A stretch of 59,934 nucleotides of DNA, filler included. It is 3 parts of 3 records of this genome, joined end to end, with 100 filler letters (N's around TTAATTAATTAA, not from the genome) between each part and the next. Parts side by side here need not be neighbours in the genome. Positions count along the whole stretch, not along the records: positions 31,172 to 53,317 come from SRR22947725_805; 2 more parts are not named here. One strand, written 5' to 3'. Of the stretch, positions 4,664 to 59,934 are shown piece by piece. Each line of letters opens with the position of its first letter. Positions within the stretch are counted from its first letter, which is position 1. The translations under genes and the position numbers were made by a program. The notes below the pieces were generated by a model that had not been told where the DNA came from, made no database searches, and saw nothing but the letters and a program-made list of their open reading frames with translations.

Positions 4664-4740
4664 CAATATTTTTATTTTAAATAACATAAAAAACTTATAA
4701 TTAAAAAACTTAATCAATTTCATTACAAACTTAGTATTAT

Positions 4741-4748
4741 TATATTTG
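4741..4748 (+). promoter_or_regulatory. Bacteroidota -7 promoter element (TATATTTG) upstream of pheT
   Basis: Matches the TAnnTTTG consensus and ends 18 nt before the ATG. Similar elements precede several other genes in segment 1. Confidence 0.6.
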
Positions 4749-4766
4749 TATTCTTAAATATACATA

Positions 4767-7193: not shown

Positions 7194-8809
7194 TTATCAT
7201 ACATTTTGTTTCTTAATTCTTTAATTTTATCATCCTGCATATACTCATCAAACTTCATAAATCTGTCAATAACTCCATTTGGTGTTAGCTCTACTACTCT
7301 ATTAGCAATTGATTGAGCAAATTGATGATCATGCGTTGTAAACAAAACTGTTCCTTTAAATTTACTCAGAGAATTATTAAAAGCGGTTATACTTTCTAAA
7401 TCAAGATGATTAGTTGGTTCGTCTAACATTAAAACATTCGCTCTAAACATCATCATTCTAGATAACATACATCTAACTTTTTCACCTCCAGATAATACGT
7501 CGCATTTTTTCAGAGCCTCTTCTCCACTAAAAACCATTTTTCCTAAGAAACCTCTAAGATAAACCTCTTCTCTTTCCTCTTCAGTTGTAGCCCACTCTCT
7601 CAACCATTCAACTAAACTCAAATCCTTATTAAAAAACTCATGATTATCAATTGGTAAATATGATTGTGAAGTTGTAATACCCCAATTAAATTTTCCAGTG
7701 TATTTATTTTCACTTGAATTAATTATTTCATAAAAAGCAGTAGTCGCTCTGGAATCTTTAGAAAAAATAACAACCTTATCACCTTTGGCAATATTTATAT
7801 CAATTTTATCAAAAAGTTTATTCTCATCTAGAGAATAAGAAAGGTTCTCAATATTTAATATCTGATCACCAGCAACCCTATCCCTTTCAAATATTATTGC
7901 TGGATACCTTCTACTTGATGGTTTAATTTCTTCAATATTCAATTTATCAATCATTTTTTTTCTACTAGTAGCCTGCTTACTTTTGGCTACATTAGCACTA
8001 AACCTAGCGATAAATTCTTGTAGTTCTTTCTTTTTTTCCTCTGCTTTTTTATTTTGTTGAGTACGCTGACGCAATGCTAACTGAGATGATTCATACCAAA
8101 AAGTATAATTTCCAGAATAATGAGATATTTTATTAAAATCTATATCTGAAATATGTGTACATACAGAATCTAAAAAATGTCTATCGTGAGAAACTACAAT
8201 AATACAATTGTCAAAATTTGCTAGAAAATTTTCTAACCAGAGTATAGTTTCATAATCTAAATCATTTGTTGGTTCATCCATTATTAAAACATCTGGATTA
8301 CCAAATAGAGATTGAGCTAGTAAAATCCTAACTTTTAACTTAGCATCAACATCCTTCATTAAAATATAATGAAGATTTTCCGAAATACCTAAATTTGACA
8401 ATAAAGCTGCAGCAGAGCTTTCTGCATTCCATCCATCCATTTCTTCAAACTGCTGTTGCAATACACCAATTTTATCTGCATTTTCATCATTATAATCAGC
8501 ATATAAATTATCCATCTCAATTTTAACATCATACAAAGGCTTATTACCAATAATTACAGTGTCTAAAACATTTTTATCATCGTAAATATTATGGTTTTGT
8601 TCTAAAACAGACATTCTTTTTCCAGACTCTAAGTGTACATATCCAGATGTTGGATCTTGCTTTCCAGCTAAAATTTTTAAAAAAGTTGATTTTCCAGAAC
8701 CATTTGCTCCAATTATCCCATAACAATTGCCATTGTTAAAAGATGTATTTACATCATCAAACAAAATTCTTTTACCAAACTGAACTGAAAGATTCGAAAC
8801 AGATAACAT
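7190..8809 (-). CDS. ABC-F family ATP-binding protein (YbiT-like)
   Basis: Two ABC cassettes (GANGSGKST...DEPTN; LSGGE...DEPTNHLD), no TM segments, and an inter-domain linker. Confidence 0.92.
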   Translation of the reverse strand: MLSVSNLSVQFGKRILFDDVNTSFNNGNCYGIIGANGSGKSTFLKILAGKQDPTSGYVHLESGKRMSVLEQNHNIYDDKNVLDTVIIGNKPLYDVKIEMDNLYADYNDENADKIGVLQQQFEEMDGWNAESSAAALLSNLGISENLHYILMKDVDAKLKVRILLAQSLFGNPDVLIMDEPTNDLDYETILWLENFLANFDNCIIVVSHDRHFLDSVCTHISDIDFNKISHYSGNYTFWYESSQLALRQRTQQNKKAEEKKKELQEFIARFSANVAKSKQATSRKKMIDKLNIEEIKPSSRRYPAIIFERDRVAGDQILNIENLSYSLDENKLFDKIDINIAKGDKVVIFSKDSRATTAFYEIINSSENKYTGKFNWGITTSQSYLPIDNHEFFNKDLSLVEWLREWATTEEEREEVYLRGFLGKMVFSGEEALKKCDVLSGGEKVRCMLSRMMMFRANVLMLDEPTNHLDLESITAFNNSLSKFKGTVLFTTHDHQFAQSIANRVVELTPNGVIDRFMKFDEYMQDDKIKELRNKMYDN

Positions 8810-31171: not shown

Positions 31172-33060
31172 GATTGCTGAAGACGTGGCTGAAGCAGCCG
31201 TTGACCACCAAAGCGGACATCGAGAAGCGACTGGATGTGGTCGAGGTGCTGATGGCTGATGGTTCTGCCCGCGCAGACCTGAGGGAGGTGCAATTTCGAG
31301 GGGTGCCGGATGTGCATCGGCTGGGCCGCCGGCTGGATACGAGAGCAGCGACGCTGAAGGAGCTGTGTGATCTGCATCGGATGTGCACGCGTTTGCCGGG
31401 AGTGGTCCATGTGCTGAAGGATTGCATTAACGCCGCGGCGAACGATGAGGGCTGCGCGAAAGCTCAGCTCATTCGGGATTCATACATCACGCCGTTGGAG
31501 CAGGCCAGCAACAGGGAGCACCTGGGCAAGTTTCAGGAGCTCGTCGAGGCCGCAGTCGACTTTGAGCGTATCCCAGAGGAATATCTCATCAACTCCCAGT
31601 ATGATGCCGAGCTTGGGGAAATTCAGGGGAAGCGCGAGGCGGTGGAGCGGGAGATTGAGGGGCATGCGGTGCAGGCGGCATCCGACCTTGGCCTGGAGCT
31701 GGGCAAGACGATCAAGCTGGAGTGGCACAAGATGTCAAACCAGAAGCTTCGGTGCCTGAGAATAACAAAGAAGGAGGAGATGGCGGCGCGGAGCTCGATG
31801 AAGTCGTTGAGGTTTGTCGAGCTTGAGACGAGGAAGGACGGCGTTAAATTTACCAATGACCGACTCCGCGCCGCAGCTGAGCGCCTGCACGAACTCAGTA
31901 TCGAATACGACCGAAAGCAGGCCAAACTCGTGGCGCAGGTGGTGGAGGTGGCGGCGACCTTCTCGCCGATATGGGAGAAGGTGGCCGGGGTTGTTGCCGA
32001 GCTCGACGTGCTCAACGGCTTTGCCGTGCTCGGCGCGTCAGCTCCGATCCAGTACGTTCGCCCTGTGCTCGTCGATGACGAATGTGGCAGCGCGGATGGA
32101 GAAAACAGGAGCGCGATCGTTCTGAAGAAATCGAGGCACCCGTGCGTGGAGGCGCAAGACTCGGTGAGCTTCATCCCGAACGACGTGTCCTTGACAAAGG
32201 GAGAGTCGTGGTTTCAGATCATCACGGGTCCCAATATGGGAGGAAAATCTACGTTCATCCGCCAGATTGGCATGTGCGTGCTGATGGCGCAAGTAGGGTG
32301 CTTCGTTCCCTGCGAGAAAGCCACCATCTCCATCCGCGACGCCATCTTTGCCCGTGTCGGCGCTGGCGACTGCCAGCTGCGCGGCGTCTCCACCTTCATG
32401 GCCGAAATGCTAGAGACGGCATCCATCCTCAAGGGCGCCACGGACAAATCCCTCGTTATCATCGACGAGCTCGGCCGGGGAACTTCCACGTGGGACGGCA
32501 TGGGCCTGGCGTGGGCCATCAGCGAGCACCTTATGGAAAAGATTGGGGCGGCGACCCTGTTCGCGACCCACTTCCACGAGATCACGGCGCTCCGGGGCAG
32601 CGTTGGCGTGAAGAACTTGCACGTCAAGTCGACCATCGACGCGGCTCGCGGCGGGCTCACGATGCTCTACCAGGTCCACGAGGGTTCCTGCGACGAGTCG
32701 CTCGGAATCCACGTGGCCGAGTTTGCCCGCTTCCCCCAGAAGATCATCGACGACGCCAAGGCCAAGGCCCTTGAGCTAGACGGCACCATGGATATAGACA
32801 TCTACGAGGCCACCAAGAGGGACGCGGATGGGGGCGACGGGGGCGACATGGGCGACGAACGGAAACGCGCCCGTGGTCCCCCGGCTTCCGACGAGGACAT
32901 CAAGCGTGTTCTGCTGGAGTTCGCCCGGGTAGATTTCCGAAAGAACCAAAGCCAAGGCAACGGTCAGGCCCTAGCGGATCCCGAGCTTGTCCAGGCCTGG
33001 AAAGCCAAGCTCGAGGCTGTCGTGGGTACCGGTGATGGGCCGGCGACGAAGCGGTTTTGA
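31172..33060 (+). CDS. MSH2: MSH2 C-terminal half (lever/clamp and ATPase domains III-V); 5' end cut by the contig edge
   Basis: LLKTWLKQPL, RHPCVE, ITGPNMGGKSTFIRQ, GVSTFMAEMLET, DELGRGTST and FATHFHE are eukaryotic MSH2 signatures. Confidence 0.93.
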
Positions 33061-33262
33061 AAACAATCATGCAAGTCCCTCGTTCGCAGAAAGAGCTCGC
33101 GCGCATGCGCAAGCCACTGTCTCACTCAAAGTCTGACGCATCTTGCAAGAAGAAGGCGCAGGTGAGCAATCTCGGCAAGGCAAAGCGGAAGTCTGCCACG
33201 ACGACGAATGCGGGAGTCAAAGGTGCCGAGACGCTGCACCACCCAATCTCAAGCACACGTAC

Positions 33263-34240
33263 CTGCTCCAAGGTATACCGCCCATGATGGCTGGCATCAC
33301 CTAACACGTCCGCAAACCCAATCACACCCGCCAGCGCGCTGGCTGCCTCCTTACGGTCCACAACCACCTCCCGTCCCCGCTCAACCCCACCCTTCCCGTC
33401 CACCAGCAGCCGCCCCACATCGTGCTCAAGATTGGAAACCTTAAAAGCCGCCCTCGCCCTCTTTGACACCAAGATACCGTTGCAGTTTGCAAACAGATTG
33501 ATCAGGGTACGCCCATCCTTGGACGGCGAGACCTGAGCCCCGTCCCCCGTTTTGTCCGCAGCCACCATGACGTCCTCACACACCACCACCTCCTTCGGTC
33601 CGAGCTGTGTCAGGCACGTCTCAAGCGTGCAGAACTGCGCATCGTCCACAAACTCACACGCCCCAAGTCTGTGCGAAAACGAATCGATGTACGCAAAACC
33701 CACCGTCCGGAGCGCGTGGGTCGCATCGTACTTGACCGTGACCGCCGCCACGATCGGATGCTCGTCCAAGAACGCATTCGGATTCGCGCAAATCTGCTCC
33801 TCCATGAACGGGTCAAGACGCCCGGGGCTACTCGCACTCACCAGCCCGAACCCAGACGGCCCCTCCTGCCAGTACTCCACCCTGTACTTGACCGCATCCG
33901 CACTGCTGGGCACCAAGAGCTCCTTCAAGATGATCGGAAGCAGCTGATGCGTCAGGGTGATGCTCGGCAGGGGCCGCCCACCACCGTTGACGTGAACCAC
34001 CTGCGCAACCGACTTGTATAGGATCCTCGACACGATATATGGCTCGTCGTCATATCCATGCACAGATATATACGATTTTCGGTCAAAGAGACGGATGACG
34101 GGAGCCCCACTGGACGATTCCGAGTCGATCGAAATCTTGCTGTAAAATCGGACAAACGCCTTGGCGTCTATCTTGTCCAGCCCACCACCCTGCGGCTCTT
34201 TGTTCGGTGTACTCAACACCACAGGGTTGGGCACCGTCAT
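33263..34240 (-). CDS. MSH2: MSH2 N-terminal half (mismatch-binding domain I and connector domain II), ending at a 5' splice site
   Basis: AFVRFY, IRLFDRKSYISVHG, YRVE, SSPGRL, VGFAYID...LGACEFVDDAQFCTLETCLTQLGPKE and AASALAGVI match the MSH2 N-terminus. Homology stops at GRYTLEQ, coinciding with CAG|GTACGT at 33263/33262. Confidence 0.85.
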
Positions 34241-34374
34241 GGAAAGGAACGAGATGGGCCGAGAGAGAAAGAAAATTTGAATTCGTTTCCTTCACGGACA
34301 GACTCGGTGGAGAGTACGTGTAGAGTACGGGGCGGGCGCGGTGCAGCTTCCTGGACTTGGACACTGAAACCCAT

Positions 34375-35547
34375 ATGTCCTCCACGCCGGGGCCAACGGG
34401 GCCAACAGGGCCAGCGGGGCCAGCGGGGCCAGCGGGGACGGGGACGTGGCCCGACCCGTCCAAAGCGGCATGGTCGGGCAGGTCTTCGGACGAAACGGGA
34501 CGTCAGAGGAAACGGCAGCGACAGGAAGTCCTGCTAGAAAGCTGTCTGCGATCCGTCCGCCACGTACGCAACGATCGGGGCCACGAGCAGCCGCCCGAAC
34601 CGGGTGGGCGTCGTGTGTCGGCGGGGGACGTACAGGACAGGCGCCGTGCACTGAAGCGGATCATTGACGAGGCGTTGGTCGAGGAGGCCGCCTCCCGTCG
34701 AAAGGTGCACGTGGCAAGGGTGCGGGGTGATAACGTCGTGGGGGCGTCATCGGGTTCGTCGTCCGGACGGCCGTCGGGTGGATCCGTCTTCGGCACGGGG
34801 CCGCGTGAAGTTGGGCAGCCACAGCATGCCGGTTTCCACGCTCAGCCCCCGTATCGGGAAGACTCACTGCAACCGGAACAACCGACACGCCAAGACCAGG
34901 GCCCTCAAGACGACGGGGAGCTTCGTTTGACGGATGAGGAGTACTTGGAGATGATCCTGCGGTTGGAGGAGGAGCTGTACCAGGATTTCCATGGGATGGG
35001 AGAGCGCGGCGACCAGCAGTGTTGGGATGAAATGGAAGATATGGACGCGGCAGAGATCGATGCGATGGTGGAGGCGCATCTCGGCGGGGGACCTGTGAAC
35101 GTCAACGGCTGCCATTTGAGTAGGCCGGTCCAGGAGGGGGTGCTGTGTCCGGTCTGTCGACAGGCCTGGCTGCATGCCCATCCCAACAACCCGTACTTCT
35201 TTTATTGTCCCGCATCCACGTCTGGAACGCCGGCCCCGCGGCACGGATATGACGCCGGTGGACCCCTGCCGCCAGCATCTCTCGAGACGGACGCGCTGCT
35301 CCAGTCTTCGCATTGCGCGATGGATCTGTCGTCAGAAGGGATCACGTTGGATCGCGTGGGCGTGCGGGTGCGAGTGTGCGAGCATGGGCACGAAGCCACA
35401 GGGTGTGGTGGCATGTTGCGCTTTGAGATGCGGGAGGGCGGTGGTTGCAGGGATAGATTGGCCATTCCTGGGGCCCAAAGGCCGCCGATGCCACGGATGC
35501 TGGTGGCCATCTGTGATGGATGTGGGTGGTGCGACGTGTGTCTCTGA
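34375..35547 (+). CDS. RPA-interacting protein (RPAIN/RIP)-like, with a C-terminal Cys/His zinc-binding region
   Basis: N-terminal 'ESCLRSVR' helix, acidic 'EEYLEMILRLEEELY' centre, and CPVC...C...H...GC...CDGC C-terminus. First ATG is at 34375. Confidence 0.7.
   Translation: MSSTPGPTGPTGPAGPAGPAGTGTWPDPSKAAWSGRSSDETGRQRKRQRQEVLLESCLRSVRHVRNDRGHEQPPEPGGRRVSAGDVQDRRRALKRIIDEALVEEAASRRKVHVARVRGDNVVGASSGSSSGRPSGGSVFGTGPREVGQPQHAGFHAQPPYREDSLQPEQPTRQDQGPQDDGELRLTDEEYLEMILRLEEELYQDFHGMGERGDQQCWDEMEDMDAAEIDAMVEAHLGGGPVNVNGCHLSRPVQEGVLCPVCRQAWLHAHPNNPYFFYCPASTSGTPAPRHGYDAGGPLPPASLETDALLQSSHCAMDLSSEGITLDRVGVRVRVCEHGHEATGCGGMLRFEMREGGGCRDRLAIPGAQRPPMPRMLVAICDGCGWCDVCL
34390..34434 (+). repeat. 9-bp tandem repeat x5 encoding (Gly-Pro-Thr/Ala)5
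   Basis: gggccaacg gggccaaca gggccagcg gggccagcg gggccagcg. Confidence 0.9.
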
Positions 35548-35552
35548 TGAGG

Positions 35553-35583
35553 AGAGGAGCAGAGGAGCAGAGGAGCAGAGGAG
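35553..35583 (+). repeat. 8-bp tandem repeat (AGAGGAGC) x~4 downstream of RPAIN
   Basis: agaggagc agaggagc agaggagc agaggag. Confidence 0.9.
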
Positions 35584-35664
35584 GGTGCTTGTCGTGTCGC
35601 TGGGACCGGTCGCCGACCTGCCCCACCGCTCCGGTTGTCTTCATTCACATTTGTCGTATCATCA

Positions 35665-37185
35665 ATGTCATTGACATTTATAAGCACGCCTTTTGCGCTG
35701 GCGATGAATGCCATGTCTCGTCCCCCAAACACGGGGCGACGGGATGCATCTTGTCTTGACTGCCGAATGCACGTGTTTCCCCCGAGTGCGTTCGTTCGAC
35801 GATACCGTCATACTAGGGATGGCATGCGTCATACCATGTCCATTTCTTCCGTGACAGCGAACGCCATTAAGGCCCAGTCGGGCGGCAAGAAATCCGCTCG
35901 GTCCTCAAAGAGCCGTGCCGTGCCCCCCCTGCCCCTGCCTGCGGCGAATGACACCAATACCCAGCAGACCATCTCGCATTCCTTCACGATCTCGGGGGTG
36001 GGACTGCACACGGGCGAGACGACGGTGGTCACGGTGAGGCCGGCACGTTCGAACGAGGGGCGGTACTTTGTTCGGGTTCCAGAGGGCACGAACGCGGGCA
36101 GGTACTCGCCACCCAAGCCGCAGTTTGTCCGGTCTGAACAACTGGATATAAATTACGGGGCCGAGGATGGGCTGGACGCGGAGGAACGCGCGCAACTGTT
36201 TTTGCAGTACATGAGTGAGCAGGGAGACCAGGGGGACGAGGAGTTTGGGGACTACCTGCAGAGGAACGTGCCAGATTTGCTGCAGGATACCTTGATATTT
36301 GCTAGTATGGATAAAGGAGTCGAGGAGCCGACCTCTAGGGGGGCGGATGAGGAAGTTGTGGAGGCCGACATCGGGAGGGCCGAGGTGTACGGCGAGACGA
36401 CGACATTGCTGCGAAGTGCGAGTGGAAACAGCTATATAATGAGCCCGGAGGCGCTTTTGTCGGCATTGGAGGCGTGCGGGGTGGATAATGCGAGGATCGA
36501 GGTCGAGGGGGGCTCAGAGGTACCTGTGGCAGACGGGTCGGCGTTGACATGGGCCCTGGAGGTGCAAAAGGCGGGGGTGCGGGCGTGTGACGGCGGCTCG
36601 GATGCCGAAAATACCGCAAAACAGGGGCATGTGAGACAGATGGTCACTGTGAGCGGAGGGGCAAGTCGGCCAGGGGCGTTTGTGAGCTTCTATCCCTCTG
36701 CGACAGGCGACATCGCCGCCGACGCTGACAGTGGGGCGTCCGAGATCGGGACAGCCATTACCGCTGGGGTCGATTTCTTCGACGATGCTGCGTCGTCTGT
36801 GGGTCGCCAGTGGGTGACGTGGAAGACGTCGGACGCATCCCCTGCTGACGACTTTGCCGGCCACTACCGATGGGCTCTGGCCCCGGCACGGCCAGTGTTC
36901 CCGTCATACGAGGCAGTGGAAGAGCTGTATGCAGATGGCTTGATTCAGGCCGGACCGGATGGATGCTGCGTGATCGCAGAGGGGGACGGCTGGTACGATC
37001 CGAATCTGGTGCGCTTCCCGCTGGACGAAGCCGCCAGACACGCCGCCCAGCGGTTGATCGGGGTGCTGTCCCTGTGTGCGACACCGGGAGGACGGGGACT
37101 CCCATGTGGACACGTCGTGGCCTTCGATGCGACCCCCGAAATGATGATTTCCTTCGCCTTGAAGCTCAAGGCCGCGCACCAGTAA
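35665..37185 (+). CDS. LpxC-fold protein (UDP-3-O-acyl-GlcNAc deacetylase-like), probably catalytically inactive and organelle-targeted
   Basis: QQTI....SGVGLHTG, V.VRPA, LLSALEACGVDNARIEV, EVPVADGSA, APAR and RFPLDE.ARH. The N-terminus is Ser/Arg-rich like a transit peptide. The start is uncertain (ATG 35665, 35704 or 35836). Confidence 0.8.
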   Translation: MSLTFISTPFALAMNAMSRPPNTGRRDASCLDCRMHVFPPSAFVRRYRHTRDGMRHTMSISSVTANAIKAQSGGKKSARSSKSRAVPPLPLPAANDTNTQQTISHSFTISGVGLHTGETTVVTVRPARSNEGRYFVRVPEGTNAGRYSPPKPQFVRSEQLDINYGAEDGLDAEERAQLFLQYMSEQGDQGDEEFGDYLQRNVPDLLQDTLIFASMDKGVEEPTSRGADEEVVEADIGRAEVYGETTTLLRSASGNSYIMSPEALLSALEACGVDNARIEVEGGSEVPVADGSALTWALEVQKAGVRACDGGSDAENTAKQGHVRQMVTVSGGASRPGAFVSFYPSATGDIAADADSGASEIGTAITAGVDFFDDAASSVGRQWVTWKTSDASPADDFAGHYRWALAPARPVFPSYEAVEELYADGLIQAGPDGCCVIAEGDGWYDPNLVRFPLDEAARHAAQRLIGVLSLCATPGGRGLPCGHVVAFDATPEMMISFALKLKAAHQ

Positions 37186-37401
37186 TTCTCATACACGATT
37201 CCTTCGCAAATTTCGTCCTATTAGGTACGTTACCACCTCTCAAAACGCGTTTTCGTGGTCTCCGCGTACCGGAGGGCGCACCGTGGGTCCAACAGCGACG
37301 AGAACGGAATTTGTTGATCGGTAAAAGTTTTCGTCCAGTCGTCTCTACGCCGCCGTAACCGCCACCGGATCGTGCTAAATCCCACCTTGTATTCATATGA
37401 A

Positions 37402-38055
37402 ATGTCTTGGACGCAGCAATATCCGCGTTTCCCGTACGCTCACGTCGTTTCGTTCTCGTCCGTAGGCCGTGATCAATCAACACCGGTTCAACACAGGATG
37501 GAGAAAAACCCGTGGTACAAGAACGTGGAGGGCCCATTCTTGCAGTGGAAGGGACCGGTTGGCATCAAGGAGGACGGAGGCGGCTGCACGCGCGCCCAGG
37601 GCCGGGTGGGAAATATGGTCGTGCACAGGGCCGCGTTCAACAAGAACGCTGCGGCGATCAAGAAGGCCGTGGAGAGCGGCGAGGACGTCAACGAGGTGGA
37701 GGGTGCGGGTAACACGCCGCTTCATTGCGCCGCCTATGCCGGATGGGAGGAGGGCTGCGAGCTGCTCCTCTCCCTTGGAGCCAAGGTGAATGCCTCGAAC
37801 AACGCCGGGGACAGGCCGTGGCACTGGGCGCAGAACATGGGCCAGAAGGGCGTGATGAGCCTGTTGGAGAAGGCTGGCGCGTCCAGGGAGCACGGAAAGG
37901 TGCTGGTGCAGGATCATGTGCCCAAGGTCAAGGACTTTTACCAGAAAGAGTGCTGGGCACACCATCCCAAGCCGCACGCCGACTACATGGAGTGGAGATT
38001 GAAGCAAGACAAGGCGGCGGAGGCGGAGAGGAACAAGTTGATCCCAGGCATGTGA
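37402..38055 (+). CDS. Ankyrin-repeat protein
   Basis: GNTPLHCAA...ELLLSLGAKVNASNNAGDRPWH. The start is uncertain (ATG 37402 or 37615). TGTAA, the chlorophyte poly(A) signal, lies at 38062-38066. Confidence 0.8.
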   Translation: MSWTQQYPRFPYAHVVSFSSVGRDQSTPVQHRMEKNPWYKNVEGPFLQWKGPVGIKEDGGGCTRAQGRVGNMVVHRAAFNKNAAAIKKAVESGEDVNEVEGAGNTPLHCAAYAGWEEGCELLLSLGAKVNASNNAGDRPWHWAQNMGQKGVMSLLEKAGASREHGKVLVQDHVPKVKDFYQKECWAHHPKPHADYMEWRLKQDKAAEAERNKLIPGM

Positions 38056-38095
38056 GCCGAATGTAACAGAGAACGAGAACGAGAACGACTATCCA

Positions 38096-39366
38096 CTACA
38101 GGCTCTGTTCCAATGCCCCTCGCGGAGGGGTGGCTGGTCTGCCCCCCATAGAGAAATTAAATCTCGTCTTCCTCTCCGCTGGCTTCAAGATCTGGAACGA
38201 GCACATTAGTGTCTCGTCCACGCTCATCATCGCCCCAGCATTATCAAACTCGCCGCAATAATTCGGTGCCGAGAAAATTGTCACCAACTGCCTCCTGGCG
38301 AAGAACTCGTACCCGTCCTCCACCACCTGGTGCGCCCTGCAAACCAGGTCCAGGTCGTGACGCTGCAGGAACTCCGTAACTGCATCCGATCCAAACGTGT
38401 ACGACACGCCCCTATCGTTGTCGCCCCAGCCAACCGTGGCCCCGTCCGGATCCGACCACAGCAGGTCGCAAAGCAGGCCCTGGTCAGGGACATCTGTGGG
38501 CCGTGTGATCCTCTTGATCTGGTCCAGATTTTTGAGCTCGGGCGACAGCCCTCCGTGCATACACAATATCTTCTCGTCAATCAAGGCGCTCACCGGAAGG
38601 CAGTTGAAACAGTCCGTGAACGTCTTCCACAGCCGGACGTTGAACCGGCGTTTGCACTCGTCATAAAAACCGTAAATCCGGTTGATCGATGCGCACTCGT
38701 GGTTCCCACGCAGCAAGAAAAAGTTCTCCGGGAATTTGATTTTGTACGCAAGCAGCAGGCAAATGGTCTCCAGACTCTGCCGCCCTCTATCCACGTAGTC
38801 GCCCAGGAAAAGGTAGTTTGCCTCGGGTGGGAACCCCCCGTACTCGAACAGGCGGAGCAAGTCAGAGTACTGCCCGTGAATATCCCCGCATATCTTGATG
38901 GGTGCTTCTAGTTCTAAGAGATTCGGCTGGCTCATGAAGATCTCCTTGGCCGTGAGACAAAGCTGGCGGATTTCCGCCTCTGTCAGCGGAACCAGCTTGC
39001 CCGGCCTGCCGCTCTTGACATCGAGAAGCCTCTCGATGATGCCATCGAGCACCGCGTTATCCTGCAAATCGTTGAAGGAATGGGCCGTGGTTAGATTGGG
39101 TGGCCCGGCGCGGTCGAGGCGGGCGCTCGGCATGGCTGGGAAGGGGGTGTTTCGAGGCCGCCGGCCCTCCACCCATGGAGCGCGTGATACGGCATCCCAC
39201 GATTCATGCGTTTCACATGTACCAGTCGGGGCACGGCGGGACCGGTGGAAGGCCCGAGACAGCGTGGGAAGGGGGAGGTGTCGTCGAAATTTTGGAGCGC
39301 TCATGCCGCGGCCTCCAGCCCTCGAAAGGGGACAGACAAGGACTCCTATGTGTATCCACGTACCAT
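38096..39366 (-). CDS. PP1: Serine/threonine protein phosphatase PP1 catalytic subunit; join(39366-39364, 39061-38096)
   Basis: GDIHGQ, GDYVDRG, LRGNHE, HGG and SAPNYC. Splicing ATG|GTACGT...CTAAC...TTGCAG|GAT yields [14 protein letters not shown], a typical PP1 N-terminus of a 322-aa protein. Confidence 0.92.
39062..39363 (-). other. Spliceosomal intron directly after the PP1 start codon (302 nt)
   Basis: GTACGT donor, CTAAC branch point about 30 nt before the TTGCAG acceptor. Confidence 0.75.
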
Positions 39367-39572
39367 ATGTTCCTATAGATAGCGAGAGAGTCGATATCCG
39401 ACGGCTCAGGAGGCTGCAGAGACACTCCCACGTTCGTGCGGCGAGACGGGGTAATTCGTTGAGATGGACGTTGCTTGTGCCGATGTCAGGTTGAGATGTG
39501 AAATTCTAGAACGCATACGCGTGAAATTTGAGTCTCAAACGCGGGAAGATGCCCCGAGTTTCAATATTCGGC

Positions 39573-42500
39573 TTACCTCGAGGAAGGCAGCCACCTCGAG
39601 TTGGCATCGTGGGTCGAGAGCAGGGGTACGTTCTCCGCCATGCATTCCTTGATCACGGCAGCCTCTACGGCGCGGGCCGTCGAGCTGCTTACGATGACGT
39701 AGAGGAACTCAGCATCGGGGTCGTGGACCTGGGAGCTGGCGGCACTGCCAGGCGAGCGGTGCGTGAGGATTCGTTCTCTAAGTTGTCCGGACGAGCCTAC
39801 GTAGAATCTGTTGTCTCGGGGTCTGCGAGCGATGTAGACACACGAGCGATTCGTGGTGTGGGTGCCGGGGAGGGTTCCCTTGGGGACGAGGTGGACGTCG
39901 GGGACGGTGGTCGCCAGACCATCTCGCTCTGGGCCGCTCAGGCTGTCCAGGACGTGCTGGCAGGTGCGTTGGAGGAGCGGGGACAATTTTTCTAGGGAAT
40001 CAAACGGGCTCGATGAGCCGGTATTGCGGGGTGCCGTGGGCGCGACGCGGGGTGCCGGGTGGTCGTCGCCACCAGGCCCGTTGGAGCCGCGTTGGTAGAG
40101 GGCGGCGGCCCGTTTGAGTGTGTCATGCGGCAGATTGCACTCACGCGCCACCTCCAAGGCGAGGCTCTCGGTCGAGGTTCCTTCCACCATTCGCCACGTG
40201 GGCCGCCTGCCATGCCTGCCATCGTCCACCACCTCCATCTTCATCTTTGTCGTGTTCTCGGAGAGTTCCAGGTCCATGTGTAGGAGGTCGTGCAGATGAG
40301 TGGCGAAGGCGCCAATGCAGCCGGCCTTGTCGAGGGCCTCGAGCATCGCGCCGGCAAGGGCGGCGCCGGCCCTTGCCTCGGTGCCCTTGCCCAGCTCGTC
40401 GACCAGGACGAGGCTCTTCGAGGTGACGTCCTGAAGGACATACTTCATCTCCATCATCTCCACGGCAAAGCTCGAGCGTCCCTCGAGCGGCGAGTCCGAG
40501 GAGAAGTTACGGAGCATGAAGGCATCGATGTAGGGGATTTGGGTGGCGGCCTCGGCGGGGATGGCGAGGCCGCAGGCGCCCAGAAGGGCACAGGCGCACG
40601 TGGAGCGTAGCATGGTGGACTTTCCAGCCATATTCGGGCCGGTGACGAGAAACATGCCGTTCATGTCGAACGAGTTTCGCACGACGCGGGGGTCAATGCC
40701 ACCCGGCCCACCTAGCCAATATGGCCACGCCGCTTTGAGGTTTAACGAATTCTTCAACACACCCTCCCCTTTGGAGTCGAAGCCCACGAGATTGGGCAAA
40801 TCCCAGGACCTTCGCTTCGATTCTCGGACGTGCGCCTCCAGAACGCATGCGATCAGAGAGAAGGAGGCCGCGCCGACCAGCTCAGGGATGAAAGGCGACA
40901 CGGATGCCGCCAGCTCTCGCAGCTGCTCCCGGACAGCGTCATGTGCAGCCACGCATGAGCGACGATACTCATCCTGCGCCTCTTCCAGTGCCAACGTGGA
41001 GTAGACCGCCGTCTCCACCTTACCGTTGCGATCGCGTGGATGCAAAAGGCCGAGCACTGATGCCTTGTCTGCGGACATCTTCGTCCCCCTCGGGAGCTTG
41101 ATCCACGATGCGTTGTTGTTTACGTCATACGCAAGGTAGGGGTCTTTGCCACTGGAGCTTGAGAATGTGGCCGCCTCTCTCGCCAGCGATACGCAGGCGT
41201 GCGCCTCGATCATGACCCTGCTCCACGCCTGTTCCACCTGACCGACCGCCAGGGGAATGGTGGAGTCCTTAACTTTTCCTTTGTATTCCTCATTCGAAAG
41301 CTTCATTCTGGTCAACACCTCTGCGATCCCCGCAAACTCCGATGGGATATTGGCAGATGTGGGCGGCTTGACGGCCGCCTCCACGACGTCGTCCACCAGG
41401 GCCCTCACCTCTGCAAGCTTGACGGCGAGCTCGTGCGCGGCAAGCCGCACGCCCGTCTCAGACGCCACCGCCACCAAGACGTTGTCGCACATGTCAGCCA
41501 GGGCGGGCGAGTCGCATGCTGCCCCGACCACCGAGCACAGATCCTTCAGTTCGTTAAAAAAGTCCGCATTGCCCTCCCGCTTCTTCAGCTTAAGCACCAC
41601 ATTCGCCGGTGACATGGCCACGAAGTTGGGCAGCGACCCGTGATCCTTCCACAGCTCCCTGCAAGCACGGTGCAGAGACATGGCCACGTGCGGCTCGGGT
41701 GGCATGAGGAGCAGCGACCGAAGCCACCTTCTCGCCGCCAGAGGCGCACCCGCAGGTAAAGCGTAGTCAAGGAGACTAGGCACGCCTCTCGTCTTGTGCA
41801 ATCCCAAGTTTGACGCCGTGGAAAAGTACAACGGCCGTGGGCGTGTCTTTGGGCTGCTACTGGGCAGCCTGCGAAACTCAGCGTCCGCTGGCATCCCCTG
41901 TCCAAGGTACGGAGTGCATGAGTTTGTGAGTTCGTGAGTGCACGAGTGCGTGAGTTTGTGCGTGATTCACTGTCGCCGGGTCTGGGCACGGATGACGTTC
42001 AACACCACGCACCAGGTGCATCTTGACCCGCTCAAGCATCCCCACCACGGCGTCTGAATCCGAGTACTTCACAATACTTGTCCCCTGCGTTCGAAATACG
42101 CTCCCCATCCGCTGCTTCCACTCCACCTCGGGCACAGAGTCTCGTAGCCGCGTGTCTGCGTCCGCGAGCAATGGCGGCGAATGCAAGTACAACGGGGGCA
42201 CAAGCCCGCCCTCGTGCAATCTTGAATATACCGCATCCTCTGTAAGCCCCTCTGTCGTCCGAACCGTCATCAACTCGGCGTCAACCTCGATCACCGAGTA
42301 CCCTCCCACCGCAGGGGAGATGCCCAGCAACGGCGGGGTCTTCTCCACGGGAATATTCACCTCCTCGTCCACCATATTGTGAAGAAAGTGCGGCATTGCA
42401 GGCGTAACAATAGCCGCAATATACCGCTCTTTCGGCGCTCGCCGCATCGTCCCGTAATTGTACGGCTCGGGAGCCTCCTCGCAAACCACCACCGACAGAC

Positions 42501-53417: not shown

Positions 53418-54101
53418 AAACTCTGCTCTATAGTTTTTTCTAAAATTTTCTACTCCAGACTGGTCCAAGATCACCTCGGATGCTGGAGTTAAAGTCACGG
53501 ACTTTATCTTATCTTTTCCTATTTGAGTATTTTGATCAAATGAGCGAATGGTTTCTAATGTATCTCCAAACAAATCCAAGCGGATCGGTTTCTTGTAGCT
53601 TGGTGGGAAAATATCAATTATCCCACCTCTTAATGAGTAATCACCTGGCTCCATAACAGTTGCACACTTTGAAAAACCCATTCGAACCAAATACGCCGTT
53701 AAATTATCTAAATTTACTTGCGTACCAACATTAAGAGTAAAAACCGTTTCTCTGATTGTTTTAATTGATTGAGTTTTTTGAGTGATGGCCGCTACAGTAG
53801 TCAGCACAACAAAAGAATTAGCTTCTTCTCTCGTAAGCTTTGACAAGGTAGAAATTCGTTTAGATACAATAGTTAAGCTTGGCGACACACGATCATAAGG
53901 CAAACAATCCCAAGCTGGAAACTCAAGAATTTCAAAGCCTGCATTATAAAATTGCAAAGCTTGTTTTGTCTCCAACAGCCTCTTGTCATCTCTACAAACG
54001 TGAATTGCTGTTTTTCCAGAATTTACCTCTTTAATTATTAAATCAGCATCAAATCCCTCTGGCGATCCACTGATTTTTATAATGTTATTATTTTTATTCA
54101 T
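53418..54101 (-). CDS. mfd: Transcription-repair coupling factor, N-terminal part (truncated by the contig end)
   Basis: SGSPEGFDA, FPAWDCLPYDRVSP, PGDYSLRGGIIDIF and RLDLFGD.LETIRSFD, in an alphaproteobacterial style. Confidence 0.92.
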
Positions 54102-54241
54102 CGTTGTGCATTAAGGGATTACAATGCTGTGTCAACATCGCTTATTTTATTTTATATTTATCTGATTTATTAGTGTATTAAAATAACAGTTGATAAGTTA
54201 GTATTTTCAATCTTTTATAAAACCAACACTGTGAGGGATAA

Positions 54242-55243
54242 ATGGGCCTAGAACATAATCAACAGAACGCGCCAAGGTTTAGACGTTTACGTCAAAACTC
54301 ATCAATACGATCACTCATACAAGAAAAGACACTTTCAGTAAGTGATTTAATTTGGCCGATCTTTGTTATTGAAGGTCAAAACGAGGCAATCGATATTCCG
54401 ACTATGCCTGGGGTGCAGAGGCTCACTATTGACAAAGCTATTGAAGCAGCAAAATTTGCAAAAAAAATGGGTATACCTGCTTTGTGTATATTTCCATGTG
54501 TAGACATCAAACTAAAAAGTGAAATGTGTGAAGAAGCTTGGAATACAAACAACCTTTCGAACAGAGCTGTAGCTGCTATAAAATCTGCTGTTCCTGATAT
54601 TTTAATTATGACCGATATCGCCTTAGACCCCTACAATATAAATGGGCACGACGGAATCGTTAAAAATGGCATTATAGTAAATGATCAAACGGTTGAGGCA
54701 CTGGTAAAGATGGCAATTGCTCAAGCAAAAAGTGGTGCAGATATTCTAGGACCCTCCGACATGATGGATGGTCGAATTGGCTCCATAAGGACTGCATTAG
54801 AGAGTTCTGGTTACTATGACGTAATTATCCTAAGTTATTCAGCAAAATACGCATCAGCTTTTTATGGCCCTTTTCGAGATGCTGTTGGTGCATCAAATTT
54901 ATTAATCGGTGATAAAAGAACCTACCAAGCTGATCCTTCAAACTCTGATGAAGCGCTTAGACTTGTTGCCAGGGACTTAGCAGAAGGTGCTGACATGGTA
55001 ATGATAAAACCAGGTATGCCTTACTTAGACGTGTGTAAAAGAGTTAAAGATACTTTCTTGGTTCCTACCTTCGCCTATCAAGTATCAGGTGAGTATGGAA
55101 TGTTAATGGCTGCATTTAACTGCGGGATGCTTGAGGAAGAAAGTACTATGCTTGAAAGTTTATTATCTTTTAAAAGAGCTGGTTGTGATGGTGTTTTAAC
55201 ATATTTTGCTCCCAAGTTAGCAAAGATACTTAATGAGCTCTAA
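54242..55243 (+). CDS. hemB: Porphobilinogen synthase (Zn-independent type)
   Basis: R.RRLR, DIALDPY..NGHDG (no Cys ligands), PSDMMDGR, SAKYASAFYGPFRDA, MIKPG and AYQVSGEY. Confidence 0.97.
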   Translation: MGLEHNQQNAPRFRRLRQNSSIRSLIQEKTLSVSDLIWPIFVIEGQNEAIDIPTMPGVQRLTIDKAIEAAKFAKKMGIPALCIFPCVDIKLKSEMCEEAWNTNNLSNRAVAAIKSAVPDILIMTDIALDPYNINGHDGIVKNGIIVNDQTVEALVKMAIAQAKSGADILGPSDMMDGRIGSIRTALESSGYYDVIILSYSAKYASAFYGPFRDAVGASNLLIGDKRTYQADPSNSDEALRLVARDLAEGADMVMIKPGMPYLDVCKRVKDTFLVPTFAYQVSGEYGMLMAAFNCGMLEEESTMLESLLSFKRAGCDGVLTYFAPKLAKILNEL

Positions 55244-55334
55244 ATATTAAAATAACTTTATTAAGTGACAAGCGCCAGTTTCCTCTATAAATTTAAAATT
55301 ATTAACTAGAAAAAAATTTATTAAGTCAGATTAA

Positions 55335-55892
55335 ATGAAAACCTTTGATAGAAGAAAATTTTTTGTTTTATTAAGTTCCGCTGGACTACTAAGCGCCTGT
55401 GGTGTGAAAAGTAAACTTTTGGACACAGTGTCAATAGACAACCAAGTTGAGAACACACTTCAATTCTTGTATAACAAATGGCCAGAAATAAAAGAACTAT
55501 CAGATAAAGCGTTTGGCCTTCTAGTAATACCTAAAGTATCAGAAGCTAGCTTAGTCTATGGAGGGTCTTACGGTAAAGGAGCATTATTAATTGAAGGAAA
55601 ACCAATTGATTACTATTCCTTTGTGGGCGGGAGTTGGGGTTTAAATTTTGGAGTACAACAATACTCACAAGTTCTTTTATTTATGACTGATGAAAGTTTA
55701 ACTAAATTCAAAAATTCTTCAGGTTTCAATTTAAGTGCTGAGTTTACTTATGCGCTGCAGACAGATGCATATACTTTGGGTGTTGACATAATGTCTAGCG
55801 CAGCGCCAATTATACCCATTGTTTTTGCTCAAGGTGGGCTTATCGGAGGTATAAGTTTAGAAGGAACAAAGTATAATAAATTAACTAAATAG
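55335..55892 (+). CDS. Ysc84/SYLF-like lipid-binding lipoprotein with a Tat-type signal
   Basis: DRRKF twin-arginine, lipobox LSAC, GGSYG.G.L, S.GL..G.Q and GL..G.SLEGTKY. Confidence 0.8.
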   Translation: MKTFDRRKFFVLLSSAGLLSACGVKSKLLDTVSIDNQVENTLQFLYNKWPEIKELSDKAFGLLVIPKVSEASLVYGGSYGKGALLIEGKPIDYYSFVGGSWGLNFGVQQYSQVLLFMTDESLTKFKNSSGFNLSAEFTYALQTDAYTLGVDIMSSAAPIIPIVFAQGGLIGGISLEGTKYNKLTK

Positions 55893-55899
55893 TAGGTTT

Positions 55900-56778
55900 T
55901 TATTTACTTAACTTATTATTTAATCTTTTAATCAATGAGGATGTGTCCCAACGTCCACCTCCTATATTCTGCACTTCCTTGTAAAATTGATCAACCAAAG
56001 CTGTCACGGGAAGACTTGCCCCATTTTCCTCAGCTGTAGATAAACAAATACCCAAATCCTTTCTCATCCAATCCACAGCAAAACCGTGATCAAACTTATC
56101 AGTACTCATCGTTTCGTGTCTGTTAACCATTTGCCAACTTCCAGCAGCACCAGCAGAAATGACGTCCACTACTTCTTTAACATCTAACCCAGCTTTTTCA
56201 GCAAAATTTAAACCTTCTGAAAGCCCTTGCACTAATCCAGCTATACATATTTGATTTACCATCTTAGTTAATTGCCCGGCTCCTGAGGGGCCAAGTAACT
56301 TACAAACTTTAGCATATGAACTAATAATTTTTTCTGCTTTGATATAAGTATCAGGGTCGCCACCACACATTACTCCAAGTTGGCCATTAATAGCTCCTGC
56401 CTGCCCACCTGAAACCGGTGCATCAATAAACTCCACACCAAACCCTTTTGATATATTAGCTAATTCACGAGTTACTTTTGCTGACACAGTTGTGTGATCT
56501 ACAAAAATTGTTCCTGGTTTCATACCTTTGAAAGCTCCGTCCTCTCCTAAACATATTTCCCTAAGATCATCGTCATTCCCGACACAGGCCATTACGAAAT
56601 CAGCTCCAATGGCCACCTCTCTTGGTGATTTGTAAGCTTTACCTGTGAATTGTGACTCCCACTCTTCTGACTTATTAGAAGTTCGATTATAAACGCTTAC
56701 TTCATGACCAGAGTCTGATAAATGACCCGCCATTGGAAAACCCATAACTCCTAAACCTATAAAACTTACTTTTGCCAA
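55900..56778 (-). CDS. NAD(P)-dependent beta-hydroxyacid dehydrogenase (3-hydroxyisobutyrate dehydrogenase family)
   Basis: FIGLGVMG, DAPVSGG and GAGQLTKMVNQ; TTG start preceded by an AAGGAG ribosome-binding site. Confidence 0.9.
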   Translation of the reverse strand: MAKVSFIGLGVMGFPMAGHLSDSGHEVSVYNRTSNKSEEWESQFTGKAYKSPREVAIGADFVMACVGNDDDLREICLGEDGAFKGMKPGTIFVDHTTVSAKVTRELANISKGFGVEFIDAPVSGGQAGAINGQLGVMCGGDPDTYIKAEKIISSYAKVCKLLGPSGAGQLTKMVNQICIAGLVQGLSEGLNFAEKAGLDVKEVVDVISAGAAGSWQMVNRHETMSTDKFDHGFAVDWMRKDLGICLSTAEENGASLPVTALVDQFYKEVQNIGGGRWDTSSLIKRLNNKLSK

Positions 56779-56857
56779 AATTATCTCCTTGAGTGTTTGA
56801 ATTTTTTAACTCTTCATTGTATCGATATATAATATCTTGGTTTAGTGGTGGGTAGTA

Positions 56858-59326
56858 ATGTTGTCAATTTTTAGATGGTCATTAAGAGCTTTTCTTGTTC
56901 TCTTGTTCATTTTCATTATCTCAATCTCTACAAGTTATTATTTAATTATTAGATCAATCCCAGAGTTTAATGCCGAGTACTCCCTCGATGGACTTAAAGA
57001 TCGAGTAGAAATAACTCGGGATAGATCAAGTATACCACATATAATAGGTTCAAATGATAATGACATTTTTTTTGGCCTTGGGTTTGTTCATGCGCAGGAC
57101 AGACTATGGCAGATGATGTTAATGAGACGAACTTCTCAAGGAAAGTTAAGTGAAATATTTGGACAAAAAACGGTTAAAACTGATATTTTAATGCGCGAGT
57201 TGGGAATTTATCAGTCGGCAAAAAAATCACTACAAATTCAAGATTCCGATACTCTTTCTGCTCTAGTAGCATATTCGAATGGGATAAACCGCTGGATAGA
57301 AACTGTAAATAATAAGGCCCTAGGGCGAGGTGCACCAGAGTTCTTTTTATTTAAAAAAAAAATATCACCATGGGTTCCTGAAGATAGCATAGCAGTTCTT
57401 AACTTATTATCTTTTCAACTATCTACTAATATTCAAGAAGAGATAATCAGAGCGCTAGCTTCAGAACGTTTAACTATAAAGGAGTACACTCTCTTATTTG
57501 GAGACAGCCCTCCAAAAGAACTTAAACTCTCAATGGATCATTCTCGAATTAAAAAAGGAGTAAAAACTACTCTTAATCCACTCAAAAATGCATTACAAAA
57601 AAACAAAGGTTTTCAGTTAAACAATAAGGCCATGGGAGGTGGCTCAAACGTATTTGCCATTGGACCTACAAGGTCTGTGTCTAAGTCTACTCTTCTAGCT
57701 AATGATCCTCATTTAAGTTTAACTGCACCTTCAATTTGGTATCTTGCAAGACTAGGATTAAAGAGTGGTGACGCTATAGGGGCTACAATTCCAGGCATTC
57801 CTTCAATTTTAAGTGGAAGAACAGATAAAACAGCTTGGGGCATAACCAGTGCGTATGTAGATGATCAGGATATCTTTTTAGAAAAACTTAATCCTTTAAA
57901 TAACAACCAATACGAAACCGAGTTTGGAAGTCTAGACTTTGAATTGAATGAAACAATAATTAAAGTAAAAGACTCTCCCGATGTTACCGTCACAATAAAA
58001 AAAACTCGTAATGGACCAATTTTATCAGGAAACCAATTTAACATAAGGCCAGTCGTTCCTGAAGGATACTTAGCTTCCCTTAGTTGGACAGCTTTATCCA
58101 CAAAAAACACCTCACTTCAGGCAGCAATACGGATAATGAAGGCCCAAGACGTTAAGGGAATATTAAATGCTGGTTCGGAGTTTTACGCGCCTGCGCAAAA
58201 CTTAGTTGCAATTGACAAAACTACTATCGCTATAAAAACAATTGGGAAAATTCCAAAGCGGACAGCAGGACACACTACGAATGCTAAGACCCCGTCCGAA
58301 GGATGGATTTCTCAAAACCGATGGAACGGATATTTCTCTTATTCGTCAAATCCCGAAAACATATCTCCTAAATCAGGAACTATTATTAATACTAATAATA
58401 GATTGGTTAATTCTAAATTTCCAAATCACATTACTTATGACTATGGAGACACACAAAGAGTTATTCGATTAAAAGAACTGATATCAAAACGGCCAATCCA
58501 TACTAAAGAGAGCCTAATTGAGTATCAACAGGACATTGTTAGTGTTACCGCTCAAAATATTTTACCAATTGTGGCAAGCTCTCTATGGGCAAAGAAGGCC
58601 AAGACTACTGATCATAAATTCTCTACTTTAGAAGTAATAGGTTTGGACTTACTGGCAAACTGGACAGGAGAAATGTCAAAGTACCAACCTGAACCTCTAA
58701 TCTATGTGGCTTGGATGAGAAATTTACAGATGAGTATTGTTCAGGATGAGTTGGGTAACCTGAGCAATCAATTTCAAAAATTTAATCCTGACTTTATTAA
58801 AAGAGTATTTCTAGAAAAATCAATAGAAAATTCTTGGTGTAACCTTTTGGTAACAAACGAAGTTGAAACATGCCAAGAAATCGCAGAAACCTCCTATAAA
58901 GTTACTATAGCACAATTAGCTAAAACTTATGGCTCTTCAATAACTGACTGGCAGTGGGGAATTGCTCACACATCCTTACACAAACATTCAACATTAGGGA
59001 CAACACCACTGCTAGATCTTTTTTTTAATATTAAGCATTCAGCCAGTGGTGGAGAAAATACCATACAACGCGCTGCTATAAGCAATCATGGAGAAAATCC
59101 TTACGAGAACATACAAGGGCCTGGATATCGCGCTATATACGACTTATCAGACCCAGATAGTTCTCTTTATATAATTTCAACAGGTCAATCTGGAAATGTA
59201 TTTTCTAAGCATTATGACGATTTAAATTCGCTATGGAGTAGAGGTGAATACATTACTATGTCCTTAAATCTCAACACTGTTAAAGCTGGATCAAAGGGGT
59301 TGACAGTTTTAATTCCAAAAAATTAA
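56858..59326 (+). CDS. Penicillin acylase family (Ntn hydrolase, peptidase S45) with N-terminal membrane anchor
   Basis: RD...PHI, GFVHAQDRLWQM, GGG-SN (catalytic Ser), LANDPHL and TGQSG...S.HY.D. Confidence 0.9.
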   Translation: MLSIFRWSLRAFLVLLFIFIISISTSYYLIIRSIPEFNAEYSLDGLKDRVEITRDRSSIPHIIGSNDNDIFFGLGFVHAQDRLWQMMLMRRTSQGKLSEIFGQKTVKTDILMRELGIYQSAKKSLQIQDSDTLSALVAYSNGINRWIETVNNKALGRGAPEFFLFKKKISPWVPEDSIAVLNLLSFQLSTNIQEEIIRALASERLTIKEYTLLFGDSPPKELKLSMDHSRIKKGVKTTLNPLKNALQKNKGFQLNNKAMGGGSNVFAIGPTRSVSKSTLLANDPHLSLTAPSIWYLARLGLKSGDAIGATIPGIPSILSGRTDKTAWGITSAYVDDQDIFLEKLNPLNNNQYETEFGSLDFELNETIIKVKDSPDVTVTIKKTRNGPILSGNQFNIRPVVPEGYLASLSWTALSTKNTSLQAAIRIMKAQDVKGILNAGSEFYAPAQNLVAIDKTTIAIKTIGKIPKRTAGHTTNAKTPSEGWISQNRWNGYFSYSSNPENISPKSGTIINTNNRLVNSKFPNHITYDYGDTQRVIRLKELISKRPIHTKESLIEYQQDIVSVTAQNILPIVASSLWAKKAKTTDHKFSTLEVIGLDLLANWTGEMSKYQPEPLIYVAWMRNLQMSIVQDELGNLSNQFQKFNPDFIKRVFLEKSIENSWCNLLVTNEVETCQEIAETSYKVTIAQLAKTYGSSITDWQWGIAHTSLHKHSTLGTTPLLDLFFNIKHSASGGENTIQRAAISNHGENPYENIQGPGYRAIYDLSDPDSSLYIISTGQSGNVFSKHYDDLNSLWSRGEYITMSLNLNTVKAGSKGLTVLIPKN

Positions 59327-59330
59327 TACG

Positions 59331-59934
59331 TTAATAAAACTTACTGTAGAAAGTTTTCTTTTGTTCCTTAGACCAATTAACACGTATAACTAACCGATTA
59401 TCTTGGGAAACTTCAGAAATCACTTTTATATTCTTATATAACCATACTCTTTCAGACCAAGCACTTAACAAAATGTCCACATTATCAATAAAAAAATTCT
59501 TCATAATTTTGTCTAGAATTCCTTGAAGCAAATTATCTAACCCCATTTTTTTTTCTGCTGAAACTAGATAAATATCCTTTTTTCTTTCTACCACATTTTG
59601 TAACCTACCTTGATCTTGCTCATCGAGAAGATCAGTTTTGTTCCAAACCTCTATGATATCTTTATTGTCCAAAGCACCTAAATTTTCTAAGATATCAACG
59701 ACATTTTTGAATTGGGAATCTGCTTCTGGATGAGCAATATCTCGAACATGAAGGATCATATCCGCGTTTGTGACTTCTTCTAAGGTTGCACTAAATGCAG
59801 CCACAAGTTCAGTAGGTAAGTCTGAAATAAAACCAACCGTATCACTTAAAAGCACATCATGCCCACCAGACAAAGTTAAATTTCTAATAGTAGGATCAAG
59901 TGTTGCAAAAAGTTTGTCTTCAGCCAACACGTTG
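59331..59934 (-). CDS. hflX: GTPase HflX, C-terminal part (5' end beyond the window)
   Basis: LFATLDPT, SDTVGFI.DLP..LVAAF.ATLEE, NKTD and VSA. Confidence 0.93.
   Translation of the reverse strand, partial: NVLAEDKLFATLDPTIRNLTLSGGHDVLLSDTVGFISDLPTELVAAFSATLEEVTNADMILHVRDIAHPEADSQFKNVVDILENLGALDNKDIIEVWNKTDLLDEQDQGRLQNVVERKKDIYLVSAEKKMGLDNLLQGILDKIMKNFFIDNVDILLSAWSERVWLYKNIKVISEVSQDNRLVIRVNWSKEQKKTFYSKFY

Follow-up and report, generated by a model that had tools for sequence, protein, structure and literature searches.

The window, that is, the whole stretch of DNA analyzed (59,934 bases), is made up of three contigs at positions 1–31071, 31172–53317, and 53418–59934, which are joined by spacers of the form N44-TTAATTAATTAA-N44 and have GC contents of 27.1, 60.4, and 36.2%, respectively. 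The two halves of a gene encoding MSH2 lie in the middle contig, at its left end. Judged by its proteins, this contig is eukaryotic and green-alga-like, and the nearest named MSH2, that of Picochlorum sp. BPE23 (P0006), matches the C-half at 64% identity and the N-half at 41%. The closest genome, that of a bacterium (G001, 1.1 Mb), gave MutS matches of bacterial type only (42 and 27% identity) and is thus uninformative on the algal contig. A eukaryotic contig and a bacterial nearest genome together point to an assembly of mixed origin, in which the green-alga-like contig lies beside contigs of very different composition, bacterial ones among them. A pattern scan of genome contigs with the N-half returned 286 matches and no relatives, and a scan of metagenome contigs with P0009, a gene model 99% identical to the C-half, gave a best identity of 74% (loci L003 and L004) among at least 80 loci. 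The features at the locus, each with its basis in parentheses, are as follows.

31172–33060, + strand: 3' part of MSH2 exon 2 (open frame, human MSH2 match, Pfam domains, P0009)
33069–33249, + strand: first 60 codons of the downstream gene Y, MQVPRSQKELARM...HHPI (alignment to L004 7575–7754)
33242–33249, no strand: probable false inverted join, 8 nt, CCCAATCT (ends of independent contigs)
33242–33262, − strand: predicted start of the MSH2 intron, 21 nt, GTACGTGTGCTTGAGATTGGG (readings in P0126, P0127, and P0128)
33263–34240, − strand: MSH2 exon 1 (326 codons, human MSH2 match, MutS_II, L004 match)
34241–38278, − strand: upstream neighborhood of MSH2 (L004 colinearity, Pfam, independent contigs)

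The C-half is an open frame of 628 codons at 31174–33057 on the + strand, with its stop at 33058–33060. At 31172, two bases that close an Arg codon precede LLKTWLKQPL, the exon being cut there by the left edge of the contig. The C-half matched residues 342–853 of human MSH2 with an E-value of 2.1e-137, compared with 5.9e-62 for bacterial MutS, 7.9e-52 for MSH3, and 1.5e-50 for MSH6, and Pfam placed MutS_III (5.6e-21), MutS_IV (1.4e-10), and MutS_V (2.5e-77) in it. TGPNMGGKST and VIIDELGRGTS were read in its translation, and human MSH2 has identical residues at the aligned positions; we take them to be the Walker A and B motifs of the domain V ATPase.

The N-half occupies 34240–33263 on the − strand, with its ATG at 34240–34238 and 326 open codons ending in ...TLEQ. 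It aligned with residues 19–291 of human MSH2 (E 2.2e-24), all six of its PDB matches were MSH2, and Pfam found MutS_II (E 1.9e-07). MutS_I was undetected by Pfam, even though the alignment to human MSH2 begins at residue 19; several green-algal homologues likewise carry no precomputed PF01624 match. The frames and the two human MSH2 alignments agree with the first-pass annotation, which had described the C-half on the + strand and the N-half on the − strand as open and without overlap in protein coordinates.

Residues ∼292–341 of human MSH2 have no counterpart within the window, and a search of 33061–33262 for the ∼45 missing residues found no frame resembling MRLDSAAQKAL. Gene models of the C-half from other assemblies are 663–668 aa long and form a cluster of 28 members at ≥90% identity, on contigs of up to 416,472 bp; both models whose sequence was read (P0009 and P0010) begin at MRLD. 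P0009 extends the C-half by 40 N-terminal residues (MRLDSAAQKAL...MGKR), in line with the earlier proposal that the missing segment lies just beyond the contig edge.

Homology of the N-half stops at ...TLEQ, and the next bases on the − strand are GTACGT (CAG|GTACGT). The reading LEQ|VRV is common to three independent gene models, P0126, P0127, and P0128, and the GTACGT donor, which the first-pass annotation had called a phase-0 donor, is therefore real and conserved. On this reading of the gene models, the phase-0 intron after LEQ would be real and conserved. P0126 (362 aa, from six contigs; sources NCBI, JGI, Logan, and ENA) aligned with the N-half of the window without any difference, and so did the seven codons that follow (LEQ|VRVLEIG). 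After VRVLEIG, P0126 continues with MAGLTQWLAL (MAGLTQWLALANSH) and the window with WCSVSAPLTP (WCSVSAPLTPAFVVV), the latter being antisense of gene Y. The P0126 sequence past LEQVRVLEIG is presumably the remainder of the intron. In P0127 (93% identical) and P0128 (85%), LEQ|VRV is likewise followed by intron-like sequence, different in each. The window diverges from every other assembly 21 nt into the intron, and its departure from P0126 at that point bears out the earlier placement of a breakpoint inside this intron. No exact match to the window's read-through ORF, P0125, was found in the protein collection. The use of this hexamer by three other introns, as claimed in the first-pass annotation, was not confirmed by a pattern count: CAGGTACGT occurs once in the window and GGTACGT five times against 2.8 expected, a number that 20 of 100 shuffles reach.

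Over the C-half, the related metagenome contig L004 (12,241 bp) has an identity of 74%; the N-half matches its positions 4379–5419 at 51%. L004 runs uninterrupted through the LEQ site in one frame, ...ALEQYMPEKYMRVD...KRLLKTWLKQPL (GRFALEQYMPEKYMRVDAAAQKAL...MGKRLLKTWLKQPL). An in-frame stop at ∼6110 and ∼90 bases that are extra relative to the window (∼6103–6194) were seen in the L004 MSH2; this segment is probably an intron of L004's own at another site. L004 and the window share the same upstream neighbors of MSH2 and the same gene Y. Compared with L004, window exon 1 and its upstream sequence form one block, and exon 2 with the start of gene Y forms another, which is turned. In L004, MSH2 lies on one strand. 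Two homologues of full length are each a single chain, of 999 aa in P0011 and 940 aa in Picochlorum P0006.

Gene Y is small and conserved. It begins with a start codon 8 nt past the MSH2 stop (window protein MQVPRSQKELARMRKPLSH...HHPI), and its counterpart in L004, at 7575–7754, lies directly 3' of the L004 MSH2. A Pfam search of the L004 gene Y (L004 7575–7901) found no family. In the window, gene Y breaks off at ∼33249, at the putative false join. In four of four runs, a contig departs from the window at 33249, each time into an identical string of 30 letters, TTTCCCCGATGATCAACGCGCTGCCGGATC (beginning TTTCCCCGATGATC), and these keep the frame of gene Y, reading FSPMINALPD (...HHPIFSPMINALPD) where L004 has SPMIDSLPD (...HHAFFSPMIDSLPD). 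The spacer at 33061–33262 does not consist of an intron remnant and a 3' UTR: 33069–33249 is gene Y, and the intron is confined to 33242–33262. Run X8 carries insertions of 10 nt at 33058 and 6 nt at 33212.

The arrangement of the locus was compared with independent sequencing runs, of which 19 of the 21 listed contain all or part of the stretch. Four were compared over 31172–40000, namely X1, X8, and X9 (DNA, from three studies) and X14 (poly-A RNA). The DNA runs contain 0.83–0.91 of the stretch's sampled words, 0.91 being the best of any run. The run data are Logan contigs rather than reads, and Logan drops rare variants. In each of the three DNA runs, one contig joins 31172 to 33242 with the two pieces on opposite strands of the window, and between them lie exactly 198 letters that are absent from the window (X1 record 1, X8 record 16, and X9 record 23). 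X8 record 16 (6,649 nt, depth 82) runs from 35136 down to 33242, through the 198 letters, and on through 31172–33249; unlike the window, it extends 2,470 nt past 33249, and it includes the N-half, the C-half, the stop, and gene Y. Since 33242 is joined through 198 nt to 31172, the N-half, intron, and C-half are colinear on one strand in these contigs. The sequences thus indicate that MSH2 would be one colinear gene giving one polypeptide, as in all three DNA runs and L004 and not as in the window contig. Among the matches listed for the four runs, none crosses 33242–33249 in the manner of the window, and the bin depths at 33242–33249 equal those of the diverging contigs. A joint from 32588 to 36707 in X1 (side 21, depth 4) was treated as noise.

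The same contigs bear on the origin of the N-half, which might be a duplicated fragment while a complete + strand MSH2 continues to the left of the contig edge. The C-half does extend left of 31172, as the 40 additional residues of P0009 show. What lies 198 nt to the left of 31172, in reverse complement, is the window's own sequence, 33242–35136 in X8 record 16 and 33242–35582 in X1 record 1; thus, the N-half is the gene's own exon 1, with no second copy. Together with the single N-half match that tblastn gave in the window, this makes a duplication exceedingly improbable.

The distance between the two exons can be read from these contigs. LEQ is separated from 31172 by 219 nt, of which at least 118 belong to exon 2 as counted from the MRLD ATG, which leaves no more than 101 nt for the intron. 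Judging by relatives, it would be ∼83 nt if the six usual codons precede MRLD in exon 2. Exon 1 ends in ...TTGGAGCAG, and exon 2 would begin ahead of ATGCGC, which encodes the first residues of MRLD. Splicing of exon 1 to exon 2 is predicted from the genomic sequence; in the poly-A RNA run X14, no contig linked exon 1 to exon 2.

We considered whether MSH2 is normally split in this species, its opposite-strand transcripts being trans-spliced or its two chains working as one protein. In the window, each half is an intact open frame, and separate models of the N-half (245–383 aa) and of the C-half (663–668 aa) exist in many assemblies, as such a gene would have them. The intron, however, explains the separate models: those of the N-half run through GTACGT into the intron, and the C-half models P0009 and P0010 start at the first ATG, that of MRLD. 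The longest contigs of N- and C-half models have equal lengths in two cases (33,662 bp for P0126 and P0141; 54,534 bp for P0128 and P0140), which suggests that the two models sit on the same contigs. Moreover, the independent contigs place the halves on one strand, 219 nt apart, and the join of the window, which truncates gene Y, does not recur in other contigs among the matches listed. The earlier idea of an inversion that requires trans-splicing or a two-chain MSH2 did not hold up, the opposite-strand layout being reproduced in none of the four independent runs, and we regard a naturally split MSH2 as having next to no probability.

The upstream neighborhood, at 34241–38278, contains an unnamed ORF, a gene with an LpxC domain, an ankyrin gene, and the end of a PP1-type phosphatase gene, and 35263–38278 is colinear with L004 3162–1. 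Independent contigs, overlapping or abutting, cover this block, X1 to 35582 and X8 to 35136 and then from 35138 onward. By sequence comparison, the block appears to go with exon 1 and hence to be inverted relative to 31172–33249 in this contig.

Several side observations were made in and beyond this block. A 9-nt repeat at ∼34380–34440 encodes a Gly-Pro-Thr/Ala run, and its copy number varies between runs; X8 is without 9 nt at 34408, and loose ends of other contigs accumulate around ∼34380–34440. The LpxC (UDP-3-O-acyl-GlcNAc deacetylase) domain lies in an open frame at 35551–37185 on the + strand (E 6.4e-34) and is conserved and syntenic in L004. Over the purine-rich, low-complexity segment 35549–35583, the summed contig depth reaches 7,422 in X9, with small indels between runs; this is probably a motif common to many organisms. 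At 39576–41966 on the − strand, a 797-codon open frame carries MutS_V (6.6e-41) and then a C-terminal GIY-YIG domain (6e-05), and it represents a second MutS homologue on the algal contig. Its architecture, MutS_V with a C-terminal GIY-YIG domain, matches that of plant-type organellar MSH1.

A second junction at ∼38280 was suspected since 38207–38986 matched L004 9330–10322, and it was rejected. One contig each in X1, X8, and X9 crosses 38280, the ORF there is a PP1-type phosphatase, and the identity to L004 9330–10322 is 38–58%, compared with 98% for L004 1–183; accordingly, there is no second junction. We read L004 9330–10322 as a likely paralogue, L004 merely ending inside the orthologue.

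The ends of the independent contigs define the break in the window. Their + strand pieces stop at 33249 and their − strand pieces begin at 33242, and thus the 8 nt CCCAATCT can be assigned to gene Y as well as to the intron, as a microhomology. In the true sequence, the joined points would be 2,276 nt apart (198 + 2,078), with the second segment inverted. In a study of chimeras formed during multiple displacement amplification (MDA), 406 of 475 chimeras were inverted, the joined points of 337 of these 406 were <10 kb apart, and the junctions showed 2–21 nt of complementarity (Lasken and Stockwell 2007, PMC1855051). The window's join fits the pattern of MDA inverted chimeras. An amplification chimera and an assembler or library-preparation chimera are equally possible. 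The left end of the contig is 198 nt from the position of the join's partner; if the cause were a simple assembly-graph artefact, the contig should end at the partner itself.

The join could also be a real inversion, a microhomology-mediated fold-back that is confined to the source cell or strain and disrupted gene Y as well as MSH2, the latter within its intron. An 8-nt microhomology is also compatible with cellular microhomology-mediated repair. The deposited contig does contain the join, and no run contains more than 0.91 of the sampled words. Such an inversion would, however, destroy two conserved genes at once, and there is no sign of decay: the halves are open, and the alignment with P0126 shows no difference in the N-half. 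Among the matches listed, the three DNA runs, from three studies, have only the colinear form. In addition, an inverted join over 2.3 kb with an 8-nt overlap has the geometry that is most frequent among amplification chimeras (PMC1855051). We therefore consider a real inversion unlikely, its chances being slim yet better than those of a duplicated N-half or a naturally split gene. If true, an uncultured marine picoalga would have given rise to a natural mutator lineage deficient in mismatch repair, seen in one assembly.

With a probability that we put at roughly 0.93, the inverted join at 33242–33249 is an artefact of this contig and MSH2 is really colinear. The true order, on one strand, would be the upstream genes, exon 1 (326 codons), the intron, exon 2, and gene Y, with exon 2 consisting of ∼40–46 codons outside the window followed by the 628 codons at 31174–33057. 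The segment 31172–33249 would have been fused, in reverse complement, to sequence that truly ends 198 nt upstream of 31172, presumably either because the template was switched while the whole genome was amplified or the library prepared, or because the assembler erred. An assembly or amplification chimera had been offered by the first-pass annotation as an equal alternative to the split gene, and colinear contigs in three of three DNA runs now support it; the colinear order of N-half, intron, and C-half, which the annotation had set against a split, is what these contigs contain.

An MSH2 encoded on opposite strands of a nuclear genome would have been remarkable; what we find instead is probably a contig-level artefact. 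No claim of trans-splicing or of a two-chain MutS-alpha/beta subunit should rest on this contig. For quality control, the first 2.08 kb of the 22-kb algal contig are to be regarded as inverted relative to the rest, and any MSH2 or gene Y model derived from this contig is truncated. In reality, the gene would be a green-algal MSH2 of the ordinary kind, with a single short intron.

One comparator was the nuclear genes that are genuinely split or trans-spliced. The likeness lies in the look of the window contig only, with its intact halves on opposite strands and a splice donor at the break; they differ in that independent assemblies place both halves on one strand here. The likeness to the MDA inverted chimeras described in PMC1855051 is closer to the particulars of the join, namely the inversion, a distance of 2,276 nt, which is below 10 kb, and an overlap of 8 nt, which falls within 2–21 nt, although an assembler or library-preparation chimera would look alike in a finished contig. 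Compared with eukaryotic MSH2, the domain order II-III-IV-V is matched, with MutS_I undetected by Pfam in the window's N-half, and the best PDB matches of both halves are MSH2 chains (human MSH2: 2o8b and 8r7c). The independent contigs would give one chain of ∼1,000 aa, with no substantive difference from the known protein; at the level of the gene, the alga has a short intron after ...TLEQ that L004 is without.
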